Origin: Myxococcota bacterium
GTDB taxonomy: Bacteria; Myxococcota_A; UBA9042; PHBI01; JAWLBL01
NCBI GenBank assembly: GCA_041687695.1
Contig: JAWLBL010000011.1
Location: forward strand, 32,001 to 96,000
Reading direction: 5' to 3'
DNA length: 64,000 nucleotides
Shown: in pieces, positions 21,001 through 36,000 of the stretch
Layout of the letters: every line of letters begins with the position of its first letter
How positions within the stretch are numbered: position 1 is the stretch's first letter
Made by a program: the position numbers

Positions 21001-24000
21001 ATGCGGTCGATCTGCACCGACTTCAGGTCCACCTGCCCGTCGGGCCCCAGCTCGACCCCGAGCTTCTCGTTGAGCACCTTGGACGCCGAGGCCCGGATGG
21101 CCGCCGCGATGTCCTCCGGCGAGTGCGCCTGAGCCTCGGCCTCGGCCTCGGGTCCCGGTTTGGGCTTCGCCTCGGCCTTGGGCTTCGCACCCGCTTCGGC
21201 CTTCGCCTCGGCCTTGGGCTTCGCACCCGCTTCGGCCTTCGCCTCGGCCTTGGGCTTCGCCTCGGCCTTGGGCTTCGCACCCGCTTCGGCCTTCGCCGCG
21301 GCCTTGGGCTTCGCCTCCGCCTTGGGCTTTGCCTCGGCCTTGGGCTTCGCCGCTGCCTTGGGGGTGCCCTTGGCCGGCGCGTCGCCCGACTTGGCCCCAC
21401 CGCCAGCCGCCTTCGCCTTCGAGCCGGCCGCCGCCTTCGTGGTCTTCTTCGCGTCGCCCGCCGACCGGGTGGTCGGGGTCTTCTGATCGTCCTTCGCCAT
21501 GGTCTGCTCCCGCTCGAAAGGTGCCGGGACACTAACCGAAGCGGCGCGGGCTTGCATCCCGCGGGCGCTCGGTCCCGGATGGTGTGCGTAGGGGAGGGCG
21601 GCGCGAGCCCTCACAGGGAGGGCCGCGCCGCGCGGCTCGTCGTCAGGCCCTACCAGCTGATGCCGTTGTTCCGGAACAGCTGGCGCGCCCGGTCGTCCTC
21701 GCGGCCGTCGACGGCGCGCAGGATGCGGTTGGGCCCGCCCGCGTGGGTGACGACCCGTCCGATGTCACCGGCGCGCGCCGAGTGCTCCAGTACGGTGATG
21801 ATGCACTCCTGGTCGGCCTCGCCGCACCAGCCCTTGATCATCTCGTCGATCATCTTGCCGCGCATCTCGGGGACGGCGTGGCGGTGGTCACCGCGCCGCA
21901 CGGCCGCGCGCATCTGGTCGTCGGCGCCGAAGAAGGCGCTGAGCAGACCCGGGCGCGGGCCGCTGAAGAAGCCCTTGATGCTGCTCCACCAGTCCGGCAT
22001 GTACGGCTCGATGAGCTCGAGGATCGTCGCCGCGGCCCGCAGGAACGCCTGGATGTCGCGCTTGATGCCGTCGAAGCTGATGTCGCCGCAGATCACCTTC
22101 CAGATGATGTAGATGAGGACGCCCGCCGGGCCGTAGGTCAGGCCGACCCGGACGATGTCGGTCAGCAGCCGGATGAGGCGGAAGGCCGCGCCCACGCCCT
22201 CGGCGATGATCTTGATGCGGTCGATGTGCTGCTGCAGCTGCCCCAGCGGGTTCTCGCGGTTGCCACCCTGCTGGGCCTGCTGCGACATCTGCTGGCCGCT
22301 CTCGAGCTGCGGTCCGTCCTGCACGTTGTTCGCCGCGCTCGAGGCCTCGGGCACGATGTTGCGCGCCGACGACTCGCTCGTGCGGGCCTCGGCGTTGCGC
22401 GTCGCCGGCGGGAAGGCCGGGCGCTGAGCGGCCGCGCGCGGCTCGGCCGAGGCCGGGTCGTCGCCGAACTTGTAGGTCTTGCCCCACTCGAAGCGGAACA
22501 GCTCGCCCAGCGGCTTGTGCCACTCCGTCAGGTTGTGGCGGAACTCGCGGCCGAGCGTGGCCTGCAGGTACGGCCGCGCGTACAGATCCAGCGTCGGGGC
22601 CAGCGTCACGCCGACGCCCAGCTCGCCGGAGTACTTGCCGGCGCGGCCGCGCAGGACGCCGTAGGGCTGCACCCGCACCGGCGCGTTCAGCCGGACCTCA
22701 CCTTCGATGCCGACGCCGGCGTTCAGCCCCGGCACGCCGACCGACAGGCCCGCGTACGCCATGACCGCGGCCTGCGCGTTCAGCCCCCAGTTGAGCTGCA
22801 GCAGCGCCTCGAAGTCCGGGATGTTGCCGCGCAGCGGCCGGAAGTTCGACACGCCGATGGTGGTCGAGAACGTCAGCGCCTCCATCCCGAGGCCCATGCC
22901 CGCGGCGATGCCGAGGTCGAGGTTGACGCCCGGGAACAGGACGATCGACTGCTTGGGCAGCAGATCGAACTTGGTGCTGAACAGATCCCGCGCCTGGACC
23001 AGCGGGACCTGCGAGACCGAGAGCGAGCCGCTGAGCACCGGGTCCAGGGTCTGATCGACCTCGACGCCCAGGGTGCCGCTGATCATGCGGTTGATCGCGT
23101 AGTCGACCGTGCCCGCGATGCGGAAGGTGTTGTCCTCGTTGTAGGTCGCCGAGACCCGGCCGCCGATCCGGCGCCCGGTGCGCGGGTCGTTGAGCAGCGT
23201 GAAGTCCAGCGTGCCGCTGCCCGAGTAGATGTCGCGCGTCCCGTCGTTGCGCCAGTTCAGGTTGAACGTGCCGCGCATGTTGTTGAGCGGCGGGATGACG
23301 ATGGCGCCCGACCCGCCGGCCGAGACCAGGCGGTTGTTCTCGACGCGCGCGCGGCCCGACAGGCGCTCGACCCGGACGTTGCCGCCCAGCAGCTCGAACG
23401 GCCGCATCATGGTCGCCGAGCCGTCGACGTACTCGAGCGTGTTGGTGACGGCGTTGTACATGCCGTCCGCGTTCAGCGAGATCAGCGGGCGGCCGTCGGT
23501 CCACAGCTCGCAGTTGAGCGTGCCGCCGAGGCGGCGCAGCTCGCTCTGGACCACCTCGCCGTTGCCGCCCGAGCCGCGCTTCAACTTGAGGACCGTGTTC
23601 GAGCCCAGCGTGTACTCGATGTCGCGGCCGAGGCGGATGTTGCCGTTGCCGTCGAACTTCTTGGTCTCGGCGTCGTAGGTGCCGTTGGCGGAGCCCGTCA
23701 GCAGCGGCTCGGCCTCGCCGTCCATGATCTTGAAGGGCACCGACCCGTCGACGCGGGTCAGCGCGTTGTTCTCGATGTGCGCCGTGGCGCCGGCGCCGAC
23801 CGCCAGCCAGAACTCGTAGCTGCCGATCTGCGCCAGGCGCTTGTCGCGCGTGATGCGCGCCTCGCCCGACCCGGTGAACCCGGTCCCGCCGGCCGCGTCG
23901 AAAGAGCCGCCCAGGCGCACGGTCAGGTACGCCCCCTGCTCGTCCTCGAGCCGCAGGTTGATCTGCCCGCCGACCGTCTGGAGGCTGTTGTTCAGCACCG

Positions 24001-33000: not shown

Positions 33001-36000
33001 ATGCGCCGCTCGAGCGCGTCGTCGAGCAGATCCGGGTGGTTGGTCGTCAGGACGCAGATGCCCTGGAAGTCCTCGATGGCCTTGAACGCCGCCGCCTTGC
33101 GCTTGTCGTGCTTGGCCACCAGGGCCTCGCACTCGTCGATGAGCACGACCGCGTCGCGCATGGACGCCTCGTTGAAGACGTCGCGCAAGGTCCCGTCGAC
33201 GTTGTCCTTTTCGGGCAGGTCGGCGGCCGAAAGGAAGAGCAGCGGCCGCTTGAGGTGCGCCGCCAGCGCCTGCGCCAGCAGGGTCTTGCCCGTGCCGCTC
33301 GGCCCGGAGAACAGGAACGTCAGCCCGCGCCCGTAGGGCAGCACCTGGTCGAACCCCCAGTCGCTGATGACCTCGCGATACCGGGTGTGCTGCTCGACCA
33401 GCTCGCGCACCTGCCGCAGCTGCTCGGCCGGCAGGATGACGTTCAGCAGCGACACGCCGGGCCGCTCGAGCCGCGCCAGCTTGCTGACGGTCTCGCCCAG
33501 CTCGTCCTCGCCCAGCACGAAGCGCAGGGTGGGGGGCGTAATCTCGAGATAGCGCGCCAGCAAGGCGTCCGGCGCTCCCAGCTCGGTCCGCGACAGGCTG
33601 ATGAGCTGGTTCTTCACCAGCCGCGACGACGGCAAGAACGCCTTGCGCGCGTTCATCCGCTCGGCCGCGGTCCGGCAGAACTGGTCGACGACCACGCGGA
33701 CCGTGACGCTGCGCGAGAACATCTCGCGCCCGAGCCGCGCCAGGATCTGCGACATCTTCGGCTCGGTGTGGCACGCCGTGGCGAGCATCAGGCACTTGAG
33801 CTCGAACCCGTCCAGCCGGAAGCGCTTCGCCAGCTGCGCCAGCGGGATCTCGCTCGCGCGCAGCCGCGCCTCGAACGCCTCCCAGCGCGCGCGCGCGCCC
33901 TCCACCGGGGCGTCACCGTTCGCGCTCAACCACTCGCCCATGGCCGAGACCCCCTCGCAGAGGATCTCCTGGTTCAAGCTGCTCGCGTCCATGCCACCGC
34001 CCGAAGCCACCCGCACGTCGTCCCACGCCAGTCGCGCGCCCCCTCGGACCCGCCCGGCGCCGCGTATCCTCTCCCGGCCGCCGACCCGGCGCAAGGTGGG
34101 CGCCGACGCGGCCCTCGCCGCGCTATCTCAGCGGAATCGAACGGATCCAGCGGATCGCCGTCGGGTCCTTGGTCAGCCCGCGCGCCTCGGCGACCAGGCC
34201 CTCGCACTGCTCGGCCGTCAGCCTCGCGTCCAGCGCCGACAGGTCGTAGGCGATGCCGTACTTGGGGAAGTCGATGTGCGCCGAGCGCAGGTTGCTGAGG
34301 CCCGCGTTGTAGATGGCGTCGTCGACCGCCTTCTTGGTCCCGCGCTTGTCGACGTGCACGACCGCCAGGATGCTGCCGGCGTCCTCGGGATCGAAGTTGA
34401 TCTCGGCCCGCGGGTTGAACACGCAGTTGCGGAACATCCCGAACTCGCTGAACAGCCGCGTCGTCTTGGCCATGTAGCGCGCGATGCGGGGCTGCGCCTC
34501 CTGGGTGGCGGCGCCGATGTGCGGGGTCGCGAACACGCGCGGCTCGCCCTCGTAGGGGTTGACCCACTTGCTGGTCGCCGCCTCGCCCGGCTCCTCGGGG
34601 AAGACGTCGGTCATGGCATAGGACACCAGCCCCTCGGACACCGCCCGCCGCAGCACCTCGGGGTCGACCACCACGCCGCGCGCCAGGTTGATGAACAGGC
34701 GCGGGCTCAGCTCGGGCTTGTCCGCGAAGGCGCGGAAGTGCTCGTAGGTCACCAGGTTCCGGTTGACCTGCCCGTGGAGATCCTCGGCCGAGACGTGCAC
34801 GCTGACGAAGTCGGACATGCGGAAGAGCTCGTCGATGCTCTTGCACGCGCGGTAGCCCATCGCGCGGCCCACCTCGCGCGGCACGTCGGCCGTGTCGTGG
34901 AAGTAGATCTCCATGCCGAGCGCCTGCCCGAGCTGCGCCACCTGCCGGCCGATGTTGCCCATCCCCAAAAGGCCCAGGCGCTTGCCCGCGACCTCGTAGC
35001 GCGCCTTGTTGTCCTTCTTCCAGACCGAGTGGCTCATCTCGGAGACCGAGTCGAACAGGCGCCGCGACATCACGACCAGCAGCCCCATGACCATCTCGGC
35101 CACCGAGCGCCCGTTCGAGATGGGGTCGTTCATGACGAGCACGCCCTGGCGCGCGCAGGCCTCCTTGTCGACCGAGTCGTCGCCGATGCAGCACAGCATC
35201 ACGGCGGCGAGGCGCTCGCTGGCCTGCACCACCCGCTCGGTGATGAGCACCTTGCTGCGCTTGAAGACGAGATCGTGCTGGCCCTCGCTGAGCAGGCGGA
35301 CCAGCTCGTCCTCGCTGGGCGCGTCGGCCACGCGGTGGGGCTCGATGCCCATCTCGCGCAGCTCGGCGTCGAGCAGCGGGTCCGGGTTCTCGATGATGAG
35401 AGCGCGTTTGAACGGGCCTTCGTGACGACGCGGCAGGTTGGGTTGCGACAACGCAGGGCTCCTTGGGCCGTGAGGCGGCGCATCCTAGCGCCCGCGGCGC
35501 GGGCTGTCAGCCTTGACGCGCTGTCGCGCCGGCCCGTGGCAGGGGGCGTTATTGGCACCCGCGGCGGAGCCGTGCTTAGGTCTGCGGCGTGAGCGCCTCC
35601 GAACTCTGGTCCGCCACCTGGCCCTGGCTCTGGCCCACGGCCCTGCTCGCCGCCTGGATCGCCGTCAGCCTCGTTGGCGTGCGCCGGCTGCTGCGGTGGC
35701 TCGAGCGCCGCTCGACGGGTAGCTCCACCCTGAGCGAGCGGTTCGTCCGACGGGCGCGCCAGGTGCTGGTCGGCGCGGCCGTCGCCGTGGGCGTCGTGCT
35801 GTGGGGCATCGTCGTCCCGACGTCCGACGCCGTCACGCGCTTCCTGGTCCGCGACGTCCAGCCGTGGCTGTGGCCCACCGTCGCGCTGGCCGTCTGGCTG
35901 GTCGGGATGCACGCCGCGACCCGCCGCGCCATCGCCTGGCTCGAGCAGCGCACACAACGCACCACCAACCAACTCGACGACGCCTTCACCACCGCCCTCG

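Follow-up and report, generated by a model that had tools for sequence, protein, structure and literature searches.

Gene organization of the locus

The window, the whole stretch of 64,000 nucleotides analysed here, comes from the genome of an uncultured Myxococcota bacterium. On its minus strand lie an AAA+ ATPase gene and, beyond a spacer, the gene of a giant DUF4157 protein, with the following features.

21650..31303, minus strand: giant DUF4157 protein gene (3,217 aa, 341.5 kDa)
21653..22243, minus strand: C-terminal helical module (aa 3021-3217), from model, hydropathy and consensus
22454..23311, minus strand: C-terminal beta-meander with long hairpins (about aa 2665-2950), from 27 homologues and model
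23312..29890, minus strand: 29 tandem repeats of ~75 aa each (aa 472-2664), from self-BLAST and iterated profile
30668..30892, minus strand: DUF4157/eCIS_core domain (aa 138-212) with HEVVH (Pfam PF13699, E 2.9e-13)
30893..31303, minus strand: charged, helical N-terminal region of the putative cargo (aa 1-137), from an alignment of 13 orthologues
30944..31018, minus strand: predicted docking segment (aa 96-120), GPxAxEIAxxLxxD[FY]xxMVA, from the complex model
31304..31850, minus strand: spacer between ATPase and giant genes, 547 bp
31524-31545: perfect hairpin with a 9-bp stem, in the spacer
31633-31834: 12-nt tandem repeat in the spacer, 16.8 copies
31851..33992, minus strand: AAA+ ATPase gene (713 aa, group II of the Afp15-like family), from translation, Pfam and tree
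31923..32672, minus strand: AAA domain D2 (aa 441-690), from alignment motif columns
32673..33422, minus strand: AAA domain D1 (aa 191-440), from alignment motif columns
33423..33992, minus strand: ATPase N-terminal helix and winged-helix domain (WHD; aa 1-190), from the Pfam WHD and the complex model
ATPase residues 1-23 and 77-87: predicted cargo-docking surface, from the complex-model interface

The eCIS_core family PF13699 is the sole Pfam family in the giant protein (50.2 bits against a cut-off of 22), and H200, E201 and H204 are invariant across the 13 aligned orthologues. The preceding N-terminal region has a net charge of -12 and a conserved PEQIG-Y-ADLEA-G motif, and no signal peptide-like segment was seen at this charged and helical N-terminus. 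Windowed self-BLAST followed by an iterated profile delineated the 29 confident repeats, which include a 679-aa macro-duplication (aa 1065-1800 versus 1744-2480, up to 49% identity). The repeat region is all-beta, and an AlphaFold2 model of aa 2225-2526 (pLDDT 93.1, pTM 0.79) has six strands per unit. The predicted very stable beta structure (pLDDT 93) and the net charge of -145 in this region speak against reading the protein as a cargo.

The beta-meander is kept in 27 homologues and was modelled with a pLDDT of about 80-90; its likeness to membrane beta-barrels is generic only (Z 9-10.6 at rmsd 11-17 Å). The helical module, which matched no Pfam or NCBIfam family, is built of long helices, in which one segment (aa 3053-3080) is marginally hydrophobic, and closes with a well-predicted helical domain (aa 3126-3217). 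Its consensus is strongly conserved, and it may act in a target. The maximum Kyte-Doolittle hydropathy over 19 residues is 1.62. Among homologues, two of which bear an OmpA domain, the C-terminal module is conserved and the repeats drift.

In the ATPase, Pfam detects the WHD (PF22977, E 2.9e-28, aa 38-169) and two AAA stretches (PF00004, E 7.2e-48). Afp15 of pADAP, encoded between tape-measure and DUF4255 genes, is 32% identical to it across 79% of the ATPase length. Judged by its motifs (Walker A GPSGTGKT, Walker B VVLIDE, an NHP sensor and ERR fingers), D1 is catalytically complete, whereas D1 of Afp15 and of a Nostoc ATPase is degenerate in the same alignment columns. An aromatic pore loop is absent from D1. 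D2 carries Walker A GPPGTGKT, the pore loop KWVG, Walker B LLFDEAD and an SRH with RR. Both rings appear from their sequence to be catalytically intact, unlike in Afp15/Pvc15/Alg15. D2 is the best conserved part of the protein (46-54% identity among paralogs, 42% to Afp15). The most divergent parts among paralogs are aa 1-45 (12-18%) and the WHD (19-31%), and this divergence peaks where docking is predicted.

Paralogs and the particle operon in the genome

Outside the window, genes were called with a codon-usage caller built for this analysis and not by curated annotation. A six-frame search found 18 open frames with one DUF4157 match each, which measure 229-3,217 aa and together make up about 22,400 aa; the first-pass annotation had the same size range (229-3217 aa) but a count of 17. 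With the window ATPase as query, tblastn returned 8 loci with alignments of at least 430 aa at 32-45% identity (C11, which is the window locus, C18, C5, C30, C3, C52, C23 and C6) and a 273-aa single-AAA gene on C9. Remnants with only the WHD are present at C6:185 kb, on C36 and at the beginning of C38. The long ATPase loci number eight; the first-pass annotation counted seven paralogous genes. All four proposed adjacent pairs are present, with partners of 3,217 aa (C11), 1,604 aa (C5), 2,662 aa with T6SS_Tse3_N (C18) and 2,290 aa lacking both Pfam DUF4157 and HExxH (C6). No intact ATPase neighbour accompanies 13 of the 18 DUF4157 proteins, including those of 2,640 aa (C7) and 1,576 aa (C9), which does not support, as it was worded, the proposal of a dedicated unfoldase for every very large cargo.

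In the family tree, the C23 ATPase falls together with Afp15, with the ATPase of Nostoc and with one from Acidobacteria that is encoded inside an operon. The window ATPase belongs to a separate, Myxococcota-expanded group (split 100/100). Its position outside the canonical Afp15 clade, in a group that includes a clade from genomes where no eCIS marker was found, counts against a cargo reading of its neighbour. The ATPases are heterogeneous and not one Afp15-like kind: C23 sits beside Afp15, and genomes in which no eCIS marker was found have C30-like copies. Two gene rows place relatives within or beside eCIS genes. At the 3' end of a Nostoc plasmid eCIS operon, a 2,074-aa DUF4157 gene is followed by one small gene and then the ATPase, and on the related Myxococcales contig L049 the ATPase gene comes directly after CIS_tube and spike genes and before the gene of a 524-aa eCIS_core protein. 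The L049 ATPase shares a sub-clade with those of C11, C5 and C18 (support 93/87).

The operon of the particle, a phage-tail-like extracellular contractile injection system (eCIS), lies on another contig.

C17, 91.3-110 kb: eCIS operon with Pvc16_N, two sheath genes, two gp19 tube genes, CIS_tube-LysM, gp25, Baseplate_J and Tail_P2_I

As the first-pass annotation had it, this AFP/PVC-like operon contains no AAA gene, and tblastn found no ATPase match anywhere on C17. The second tail-like operon placed on C5 was not recovered with four marker families or by BLAST with the C17 proteins, and the sole sheath gene outside C17 is part of a prophage-like block on C9. Three related genomes in which every ATPase match is listed (G006, in one contig, G011 and G018) have no match on the Pvc16_N contig or less than 900 kb away. 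Because the complete relative genome has none within 900 kb of its operon, contig breaks hiding a loader ATPase are not the explanation. FHA-domain genes and a Ser/Thr kinase gene flank the C17 operon, which suggests regulated firing, parallel to that of the T6SS.

Conservation across Myxococcota

Across the order, the ATPase and the giant recur as a module of orthologues in conserved synteny, set among housekeeping genes. Giant orthologues of 2,495-3,759 aa adjoin the orthologous ATPase in G006, G001 and G011, and in G005 the giant is represented by two ORFs (584 + 1,750 aa). Spacers of about 270-570 bp also occur at orthologous loci. The C11 pair is still adjacent at 12 of 16 fetched loci across the order, and the window ATPase is 64-71% identical across order and class. 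Together with the neighbourhood, this is unusual conservation for toxin modules and counts against a cargo reading. More broadly, of 50 related ATPase loci with good flanks, only 9 have DUF4157 within 5 kb.

Among 31 relatives, 29 have the ATPase, the same 29 have DUF4157 and 25 have Pvc16_N; the two lacking the ATPase also lack DUF4157 and Pvc16_N. In a phylum sample of 151 Myxococcota genomes at least 90% complete, the eCIS terminator gene Pvc16_N occurs in 56, accompanied by the ATPase in 56/56 and by DUF4157 in 55/56. Conversely, Pvc16_N is present in 55 of the 65 DUF4157-positive genomes, and tube genes were found in four of the other ten (gp25 clear in three, weak in one). No eCIS marker was found in eight ATPase-positive genomes of this sample. 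Where no eCIS marker was found, C30-like copies are the only ATPase; the four ATPases examined from such genomes are C30-like, not C11-like. G005 (93% complete) retains the pair together with one lone tube gene; Pvc16_N, gp25 and sheath were not found there, which is an observation against a cargo reading.

Predicted docking and possible function

ATPase residues 1-200 and cargo residues 1-137 were modelled as a complex in three runs with 3 controls. The ipSAE values were 0.67, 0.67 and 0.69, compared with 0.00 for the best control; the runs share at least 44% of contacts, with a partner pLDDT of at least 74. Of 157 solved complexes 116 attain this mark, as do 2 of 215 mismatched pairs, counts that hold only approximately here because we used our own alignments. 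In the model, the ATPase N-terminal helix and WHD sit on cargo residues 96-120, which supports binding of the ATPase N-domain to the cargo N-terminal region, the score being a model confidence. The segment is indel-rich in the 13-orthologue alignment, and this speaks against a cargo reading.

The segment is identical at 14 of 21 positions in C9_230407 and at 11 of 21 in C53_14777, compared with 43-49% overall identity. Its motif occurs in only three of the 18 DUF4157 proteins, which are unlinked; a different N-terminal motif is common to nine others. This recurrence in two further proteins suggests that the window ATPase serves a cargo class and not a single cargo. The earlier idea that specificity is encoded with the cargo is not supported for individual cargos: three unlinked ones have the predicted motif in common and 13 of 18 DUF4157 proteins are without an ATPase neighbour, so that any specificity would go by N-terminal class.

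We slightly favour the interpretation that the two genes make up an eCIS module of cargo plus loader which has become detached from the particle operon, on the basis of gene anatomy, family relationships, synteny, co-occurrence and the passing complex model. The ATPase would assemble into a hexameric double ring and act as an AAA+ unfoldase akin to Afp15/Pvc15/Alg15, a type of motor that brings toxins into phage-tail-like particles. Its N-terminal helix and WHD would grip the helical motif just upstream of DUF4157, the D2 pore loops would thread the cargo chain, and the unfolded 341-kDa beta-repeat protein would be handed over to the tube of the C17-encoded particle, the genome's single eCIS, and be present in that particle. 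The lack of a loader gene in the operon supports this reading, and so do the Nostoc and L049 gene rows and the tree, which point to a probable descent of the pair from operon-borne modules. The position of the pair far from the particle genes suggests that a cargo and its loader can travel as a separate module. According to passages of a preprint (bioRxiv 10.64898/2026.05.27.728243), the AlgoCIS cargos Cgo1 and Cgo2 need their N-terminal region for loading by Alg15, and their architecture, a charged N-terminal region followed by eCIS_core with HExxH, is that of the window giant. Counting against a cargo reading, the giant is about three times longer than the largest among the published cargos considered, Cgo2 (1,228 aa in the same passages) and CagA (over 1,100 aa in an excerpt of PMC11297309).

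It is rather unlikely that the eCIS link is real but involves no cargo-class specificity, with the paralogs as interchangeable generic loaders or with C23, the copy of canonical Afp15 type, as the real loader, and with DUF4157 adjacency as a relic of an origin at operon 3' ends. The 13 neighbourless DUF4157 proteins, the rarity of DUF4157 near related ATPases, the grouping of C23 with operon-borne ATPases and the strong conservation of the translocating ring D2 fit this explanation, as does the signal-peptide interaction credited to Pvc15 D2 in the title of bioRxiv 10.1101/2023.08.15.553202. However, the modelled contact involves the most paralog-specific part of the ATPase, the docking motif is restricted to three proteins with another motif in nine, and the C11 adjacency has been kept across the order. 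Less probable is a stand-alone system without a tie to the particle, in which, for instance, the unfoldase extracts, remodels or delivers the giant to the envelope and the beta-meander and hydrophobic helix become inserted there. In its favour are the synteny in the core genome, the strong conservation, the retention of the pair in G005, where sheath, baseplate and terminator genes were not detected, the eight marker-free genomes, the weak beta-barrel likeness and the OmpA domains. It is opposed by the C30-like nature of the eCIS-free ATPases, the co-occurrence of DUF4157 with Pvc16_N or tube genes, the L049 and Nostoc modules inside or beside eCIS gene rows, the N-terminus without a signal peptide-like segment and the marginal hydropathy (<=1.62).

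The lowest probability, a small one, goes to the giant serving the machine itself as a structural or accessory component, for instance as a long fibre, a tether or an anchor of about 175 beta strands, with the ATPase as its assembly chaperone. This is favoured by the prediction of a single unbroken up-and-down beta-sheet for the repeats, by a fibre-like variation in repeat number and orthologue length, by a conserved C-terminal module next to drifting repeats, and by genes around the operon that suggest regulated firing. In contrast, DUF4157 behind a loading-type N-terminal region is the signature of a cargo and not of a structural part, and the giant gene is unlinked to the operon. Moreover, DUF4157 paralogs with the same N-terminus differ in their C-terminal parts and in length (641, 1,576 and 3,217 aa).

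Architecture of the ATPase and its giant neighbor

The window holds a gene for an ATPase followed, on the minus strand, by one for a giant protein whose only Pfam family is eCIS_core/DUF4157. The best-supported reading of this pair is that of a detached eCIS loader and cargo module, in which the N-terminus of the ATPase docks onto a motif shared within a class of cargos. The features of the locus are listed below in window coordinates or in residue numbers of the giant protein.

31851-33992 (-): ATPase gene, 713 aa; WHD (PF22977, E = 2.9e-28) and two AAA domains (PF00004, E = 7.2e-48)
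31633-31834: 12-nt tandem repeat in 16.8 copies (consensus CCGTGGCCGGGT), immediately 3' of the ATPase stop codon
31524-31545: hairpin in the spacer, perfect 9-bp stem, GGAACGAGG..CTTCGTTCC
Spacer between the two genes: 547 bp; gene order ATPase, spacer, giant on the minus strand
21650-31303 (-): giant gene, 3,217 aa, 341.5 kDa; sole Pfam family eCIS_core/DUF4157 at aa 138-211
Giant aa 1-137: charged, helical N-terminal region with a conserved PEQIG-Y-ADLEA-G motif
Giant aa 138-212: DUF4157, with an HExxH motif (HEVVH) invariant in 13 orthologues
Giant aa 472-2664: 29 confident tandem units of ~75 aa each, including a 679-aa macro-duplication

The WHD of the ATPase spans residues 38-169 in Pfam and is followed by the two AAA stretches, and the protein thus has the layout of Cis15-type ATPases (an N-terminal domain and two AAA domains in ~700 residues). 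Afp15 of pADAP, whose gene is flanked by those for the tape measure and DUF4255, shares 32.4% identity with the window ATPase over query residues 108-668 (E = 2e-46, 79% of the length). The closest solved structures by sequence are VAT (E = 4.9e-38) and Cdc48 (E = 2e-34), and the NCBIfam CDC48 model gives 146 bits against a cut-off of 803. The anti-phage ATPase IteA (NCBIfam NF042959) was rejected as an assignment at 162.5 bits against a cut-off of 510, with a match to the D2 part alone.

The second AAA domain (D2) carries Walker A (GPPGTGKT), a KWVG pore loop, Walker B (LLFDEAD), and an SRH with RR. No other part of the ATPase is as well conserved (46-54% identity among paralogs and 42% identity to Afp15). 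The first AAA domain (D1) of the C11 lineage, to which the window ATPase belongs, retains Walker A (GPSGTGKT), Walker B (VVLIDE), the sensor-1 Asn, and the ERR fingers, while the aromatic pore loop is absent; the same D1 columns are degenerate in the aligned sequences of Afp15 and the Nostoc ATPase. Paralogs diverge most at the N-terminus (12-18% identity over residues 1-45 and 19-31% in the WHD), which is conserved by orthologues (27-38% and 42-59%, respectively).

In the giant protein, eCIS_core (PF13699) scores 50.2 bits against a gathering score of 22, and a sequence search of the PDB with the DUF4157 region (aa 120-290) returned nothing at E up to 1. The repeats were detected by self-BLAST in 200-aa windows, as BLAST of the whole protein against itself gave the self-hit alone. 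The repeat region has a net charge of -145, and an AlphaFold2 model of four units is all-beta with about six strands per unit (pLDDT 93.1, pTM 0.79). Fold searches with this model returned VDAC and porins (Z ~13, rmsd ~20 Å), and the Foldseek TM-scores were at most 0.16 for OspA, RHS, and Tc proteins and at most 0.13 for TcdB-TccC, Rhs, and teneurin in a comparison with the RHS cocoon and Tc-toxin shell. We read the matches of the repeat model only as a generic likeness between up-and-down beta-meanders.

The last 578 residues are conserved in 27 homologues, all of which are 1,882-3,727 aa long and 26 of which are annotated as DUF4157 proteins. Two homologues of the giant (P0026 and P0027; 3,077 and 3,727 aa) have an OmpA peptidoglycan-binding domain (PF00691). 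The model of the C-terminal part comprises a beta-meander, in which the hairpins are very long, then a disordered linker, then long helices, and finally a helical end domain predicted with confidence; one segment in the helices is marginally hydrophobic (hydropathy at most 1.62). Fold searches gave membrane barrels (Z 9-10.6, rmsd 11-17 Å), Foldseek found no specific fold relative (TM-scores at most 0.14), and the likeness was only that of generic beta-meanders and helical repeats. A membrane-active role of the C-terminal module could be guessed solely from its predicted shape. No model of NCBIfam matches the giant protein, and Pfam and NCBIfam gave no family, toxin or enzyme, in its C-terminal part.

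The 12-nt repeat in the spacer is probably a species-specific non-coding microsatellite, because the tails of the orthologues are unrelated (acidic or Pro-rich). Readthrough past the TGA in the ATPase frame would yield a His-Gly-rich tail. The hairpin is not a terminator for the gene strand, and a scan of window positions 21300-34300 for promoters and terminators gave no promoter-like site and no gene-strand terminator in the spacer.

Predicted docking and the motif classes of DUF4157 proteins

The DUF4157 domain of the giant protein is preceded by a 137-aa charged region of the loading type, and a contact between this region and the ATPase N-domain is predicted. The complex of ATPase residues 1-200 with cargo residues 1-137 was modeled for the cognate pair only, from one alignment of ATPase N-domains (15 sequences) and one of cargo N-terminal regions (13 sequences). 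The model reached ipSAE values of 0.67, 0.67, and 0.69, and the highest value among three controls was 0.00; at least 44% of contacts agree between runs, and the pLDDT of the partner is at least 74. The same mark was reached by 116 of 157 solved complexes versus 2 of 215 mismatched pairs, rates that hold only roughly here because we used our own alignments. The predicted interface is formed by ATPase residues 1-23 and 77-87 and cargo residues 96-120. The model supports, rather than shows, binding of the ATPase N-domain to the N-terminal region of the cargo.

The docking motif, GPxAxEIAxxLxxD[FY]xxMVA, is also found in two unlinked DUF4157 proteins of the same genome, C9_230407 (1,576 aa) and C53_14777 (641 aa). 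Their docking segments match that of the giant protein at 14 of 21 and 11 of 21 positions, respectively, compared with 43-49% identity overall. When paralogs of this class were sought beyond the genome under study, five genomes gave the orthologue alone, with one weak match in the relative genome G017. Across orthologues in other genomes the docking segment is rich in indels, which could reflect co-drift with the ATPase of each genome.

Nine other DUF4157 proteins have in common the N-terminal motif [LM]SYxEQxxALxPGG, a candidate second class of loading signal, and two further ones share LQLREAL. The contigs listed for the nine-protein motif are C38, C31, C16, C22, C21, and C7, and it occurs twice in the 2,640-aa C7 protein.

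Genomic setting, inheritance, and distribution

The window spans positions 32001-96000 of contig C11. The genome under study (7.97 Mb in 63 contigs, ~72% GC) gave 18 DUF4157 matches and 10 WHD matches in a six-frame search. The first-pass annotation had counted 17 DUF4157 proteins and seven ATPases; in a tblastn search the window ATPase retrieves eight long paralogs (on C11, C18, C5, C30, C3, C52, C23, and C6; 32-45% identity), together with a short single-AAA gene on C9. The four adjacent ATPase-DUF4157 pairs named in that annotation are borne out, with genes outside the window taken from our own caller. At a fifth locus, on C36 (fetched locus L009, 7305-10759), a stop-interrupted remnant of the WHD only adjoins a gene for a 696-aa DUF4157 protein. 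The end of C38 (38-640) holds a WHD-only ORF with its own stop, and the start of C52 (108-1652) encodes a 514-aa ATPase without WHD. The C36, C38, and C52 pieces are decayed or split ATPase genes. A single gene divided by the C38/C52 contig break is not supported, because the contigs do not overlap and the C38 ORF has its own stop.

The injection operon on C17 lacks an AAA gene, as had been stated, and no ATPase match was obtained anywhere on that contig. A second tail-like operon, previously placed on C5, was not found by marker searches or by matches to the C17 proteins. The contents of the C17 operon are as follows.

C17 operon: Pvc16_N (the eCIS terminator marker), two sheath genes, two gp19-type tube genes, 1,656-aa ORF, CIS_tube-LysM, spike-like, gp25, Baseplate_J, Tail_P2_I
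C17 97201-102171 (L001, 13201-18171): the 1,656-aa ORF, between the second tube gene and CIS_tube-LysM, the tape-measure position

This ORF is of low complexity and rich in Ala, Gly, Ser, and Arg, matches no Pfam family, and has a GC3 of only ~0.8. It is three times as long as Afp14 (535 aa), and from its position and length the particle or tube may be unusually long. The operon is directly followed by genes for two FHA-domain proteins (L002, 6561-9011), and a Ser/Thr kinase with a PEGA domain is encoded upstream (L001, 38-2161). These flanks are reminiscent of the T6SS, which is controlled by threonine phosphorylation. The sole sheath gene outside C17 (C9, 164107-164595) lies in a run of ~30 co-oriented genes (C9, 155000-180000) that resembles a myovirus-type prophage. 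Orphan gp19-type tube genes outside tail operons occur on C27 (93708-94142) and C8 (58052-58753), with 59% and 48% identity to the C17 tube protein, respectively.

Every ATPase locus examined lies among housekeeping genes. The neighbors of the window pair are genes for a 2-hydroxyacid dehydrogenase, MscS, alanine racemase, the atp operon, and TldD/PmbA; those of the paralogs include parA/parB (C18), murB (C3), and hisD (C30). Two DUF2267 genes are located at window 14987-16332, ~16 kb from the window ATPase, and another directly follows the C3 ATPase (L007, 6810-7622).

The trio of dehydrogenase, ATPase, and giant recurs in four relatives of the same order (G006, G001, G011, and G005), with identities of 67-71% for the ATPase, 63-71% for the dehydrogenase, and only 36-43% for the giant, whose orthologues are 2,495-3,759 aa long. 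The N-terminal region of the giant adjoins the orthologous ATPase in 12 of the 16 relative loci fetched. From this synteny and the gap in identity, it follows that the module is vertically inherited and that the cargo evolves much faster than the ATPase. The giant orthologue of G005 is divided into two overlapping ORFs of 584 and 1,750 aa (L022, G005 C13, 6756-13702), which could be caused by decay after loss of the particle or by an assembly error.

Genomes of this order carry 7-15 copies of the ATPase. In the complete genome G006 the ATPase and the operon are more than 3.5 Mb apart. All ATPase matches were listed for G006, G011, and G018, and each of them lies either on a different contig from Pvc16_N or more than 900 kb away from that gene. 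Absence of an ATPase from the operon is therefore characteristic of the lineage and does not stem from a gap in the assembly.

Of 31 relatives, including the genome under study, 29 carry both the ATPase (E up to 1e-30) and DUF4157, and 25 carry Pvc16_N; G026 and G030 lack all three. Among the four genomes that have the module without Pvc16_N, sheath and tube genes were found in G020, three tube genes in G007 (67% complete), no tube, sheath, or gp25 gene in G014 (67% complete), and one tube gene, with neither sheath nor gp25, in G005 (93% complete).

In a sample of 151 Myxococcota genomes at least 90% complete, Pvc16_N is found in 56 and DUF4157 in 65 (both in 55, Pvc16_N only in 1, DUF4157 only in 10, and neither in 85), counts that are descriptive and do not amount to a test, because the genomes are related to one another. 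Among the DUF4157-only genomes, gp25 is accompanied by three or four tube genes in G057, G103, and G075, and G137 has two tube genes with a weak gp25 match; neither tube nor gp25 was found in G141, and no tube gene in G041, G067, G150, and G156. The ATPase (E up to 1e-40) occurs in 71 of the 151, including all 56 with Pvc16_N. Of the 15 others, six have other eCIS markers, G005 has its lone tube gene, and eight have no marker (G041, a single contig, and G051, G072, G102, G130, G145, G170, and G141). Among the paralogs, C30 is the nearest to the ATPases of G041, G051, G130, and G102 (35-44% identity).

Adjacency was surveyed at 80 related ATPase loci from species-representative genomes, nearly all of them Myxococcota MAGs, with a DUF4157 HMM built from the 18 domains of the genome under study. 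DUF4157 lies within 5 kb at 9 of the 50 loci with at least 3 kb on each side, and eCIS structural genes are present in the available flanks of 3 of the 80. Most ATPase paralogs are therefore orphans.

In a maximum likelihood tree of 31 ATPases (IQ-TREE, rooted at the midpoint only), the family splits into two groups with support of 100/100. Group I contains Afp15, the Nostoc ATPase, an Acidobacteria ATPase adjoining baseplate genes (L116), and the C23 paralog. The window ATPase belongs to group II and does not group with Afp15 or with the ATPase of the Nostoc eCIS operon. A sub-clade of group II (93/87) unites the C11, C5, and C18 lineages with L049, a Myxococcales contig on which genes for CIS_tube, spike, the ATPase, and a 524-aa eCIS_core protein follow in succession. 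Outside this sub-clade are the C3, C30, and C6 paralogs and a clade formed by four genomes in which no eCIS marker was found. The branches of C6, Afp15, L110, and L117 are long.

Loader specificity and comparison with known systems

The first-pass annotation proposed one dedicated unfoldase for each giant cargo, feeding a shared particle. This form does not fit, because 13 of the 18 DUF4157 proteins are without an ATPase partner, the docking motif is shared between cargos, and the ATPase family is heterogeneous. The reading as a detached loader and cargo, with docking by class, agrees with the predicted interface and the shared motif, but its setting in the core genome and its strong conservation are unusual for toxin modules. 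In addition, G005 keeps the pair without detectable sheath, gp25, or Pvc16_N, and a clade free of eCIS lies inside group II. The giant protein is a candidate cargo of the particle. Its size is no physical bar to loading: by our arithmetic, the chain occupies ~430 cubic nanometres (at ~133 cubic angstroms per residue) and would fill ~34 nm of the tube lumen, which is 4 nm wide, at full packing.

A wider form of the loader and cargo reading, which we put forward only tentatively and regard as rather doubtful in its entirety, is that in this order of Myxococcota a single particle is served by several paralogous loader ATPases encoded outside the operon, each reading an N-terminal docking motif of its own. 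GPxAxEIAxxLxxD[FY]xxMVA, in three cargos, would be recognized by the window ATPase and [LM]SYxEQxxALxPGG, in nine, by another loader, and the cargo classes would include a 341-kDa beta-ribbon protein that needs an unfoldase with two active rings. If true, such loader-motif pairs would be a natural and portable addressing code.

The N-domain of Cdc48-type ATPases selects substrates and is a double-psi barrel, instead of which the window ATPase has the winged-helix variant PF22977. Like Cdc48, p97, and VAT, the window ATPase appears from its motifs to have two active rings. With Afp15, Pvc15, and Alg15 (Cis15), it shares the N-terminal domain, the tandem AAA domains, and, in D2, Walker A and B, a K-[YW]-[VI]-G pore loop, and the SRH. 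In contrast to these proteins, it is encoded outside the eCIS operon (C11 versus C17), and its D1 is predicted to be catalytically complete, unlike that of Afp15, the Nostoc ATPase, and Pvc15, the last of which is described as degenerate (PMC11495950). Pvc15 and Alg15 are reported to be required for the loading of cargo with an N-terminal signal (PMC11495950; bioRxiv 10.64898/2026.05.27.728243), and Alg15 loads Cgo1 and Cgo2 through their N-terminal region (bioRxiv 10.64898/2026.05.27.728243). The same AlgoCIS preprint of 2026 offers the reading of the loading sequence by the ATPase of the system itself as a hypothesis only.

The giant protein resembles Cgo1, Cgo2, and the EATs in the order of an N-terminal region, a DUF4157 domain with HExxH, and a variable C-terminal part, but it has 3,217 residues compared with 498 and 1,228 for Cgo1 and Cgo2. 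It also differs from these proteins in that its "linker" is modeled as 29 well-folded beta repeats, its N-terminal region, which is helical and conserved, is more than a disordered stretch, and a recognizable toxin domain is lacking. DUF4157 is a marker of eCIS cores and cargos, and linkers of more than 1,000 residues to the end domain have been noted before (PMC8213781). Unlike most EATs, 88% of which are stated to lie within ten genes of the operon (PMC11297309), the giant is unlinked to it, on C11 versus C17 here and ~3.5 Mb away in G006.

Of plasmid sequences, pn3 of Nostoc sp. UHCC 0926 carries the one that matches the window ATPase best (33% identity over 88%). As in the window, a DUF4157 giant (2,074 aa) and an Afp15-like ATPase, two genes further on, occur together at the 3' end of its eCIS operon. 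In contrast to the window, the Nostoc module is still joined to tail genes, the cargo precedes the ATPase, and this ATPase, whose D1 is degenerate, is a member of the Afp15 clade.

In the T6SS, effectors are paired with adaptors or chaperones such as those of the DUF4123 and Eag families. The window pair is similar in that the specificity factor is encoded beside the effector, not with the machine, but the neighbor here would be an ATP-driven unfoldase instead of a passive adaptor. A parallel to T6SS adaptor pairs has been drawn for DUF4157 itself (PMC11297309).

No dispersed ATPase-DUF4157 module and no myxobacterial operon without an ATPase is described in the titles and abstracts that full-text searches on DUF4157 and on contractile injection in myxobacteria listed. 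One metagenome pipeline drops CIS clusters in which fibre and tape-measure genes are present but Cis15 is missing (PMC12210884), and toxin predictors give weight to operon distance (PMC11297309); such tools would overlook or mislabel operons and cargos with the arrangement seen here. The genome offers a natural experiment on loader specificity, with one operon lacking an ATPase, several diverged paralogs, and at least two N-terminal motif classes, and the predicted interface is concrete and testable. If the 3,217-aa protein is loaded, the assumed size limit of eCIS payloads would rise about threefold, which matters for particle engineering.
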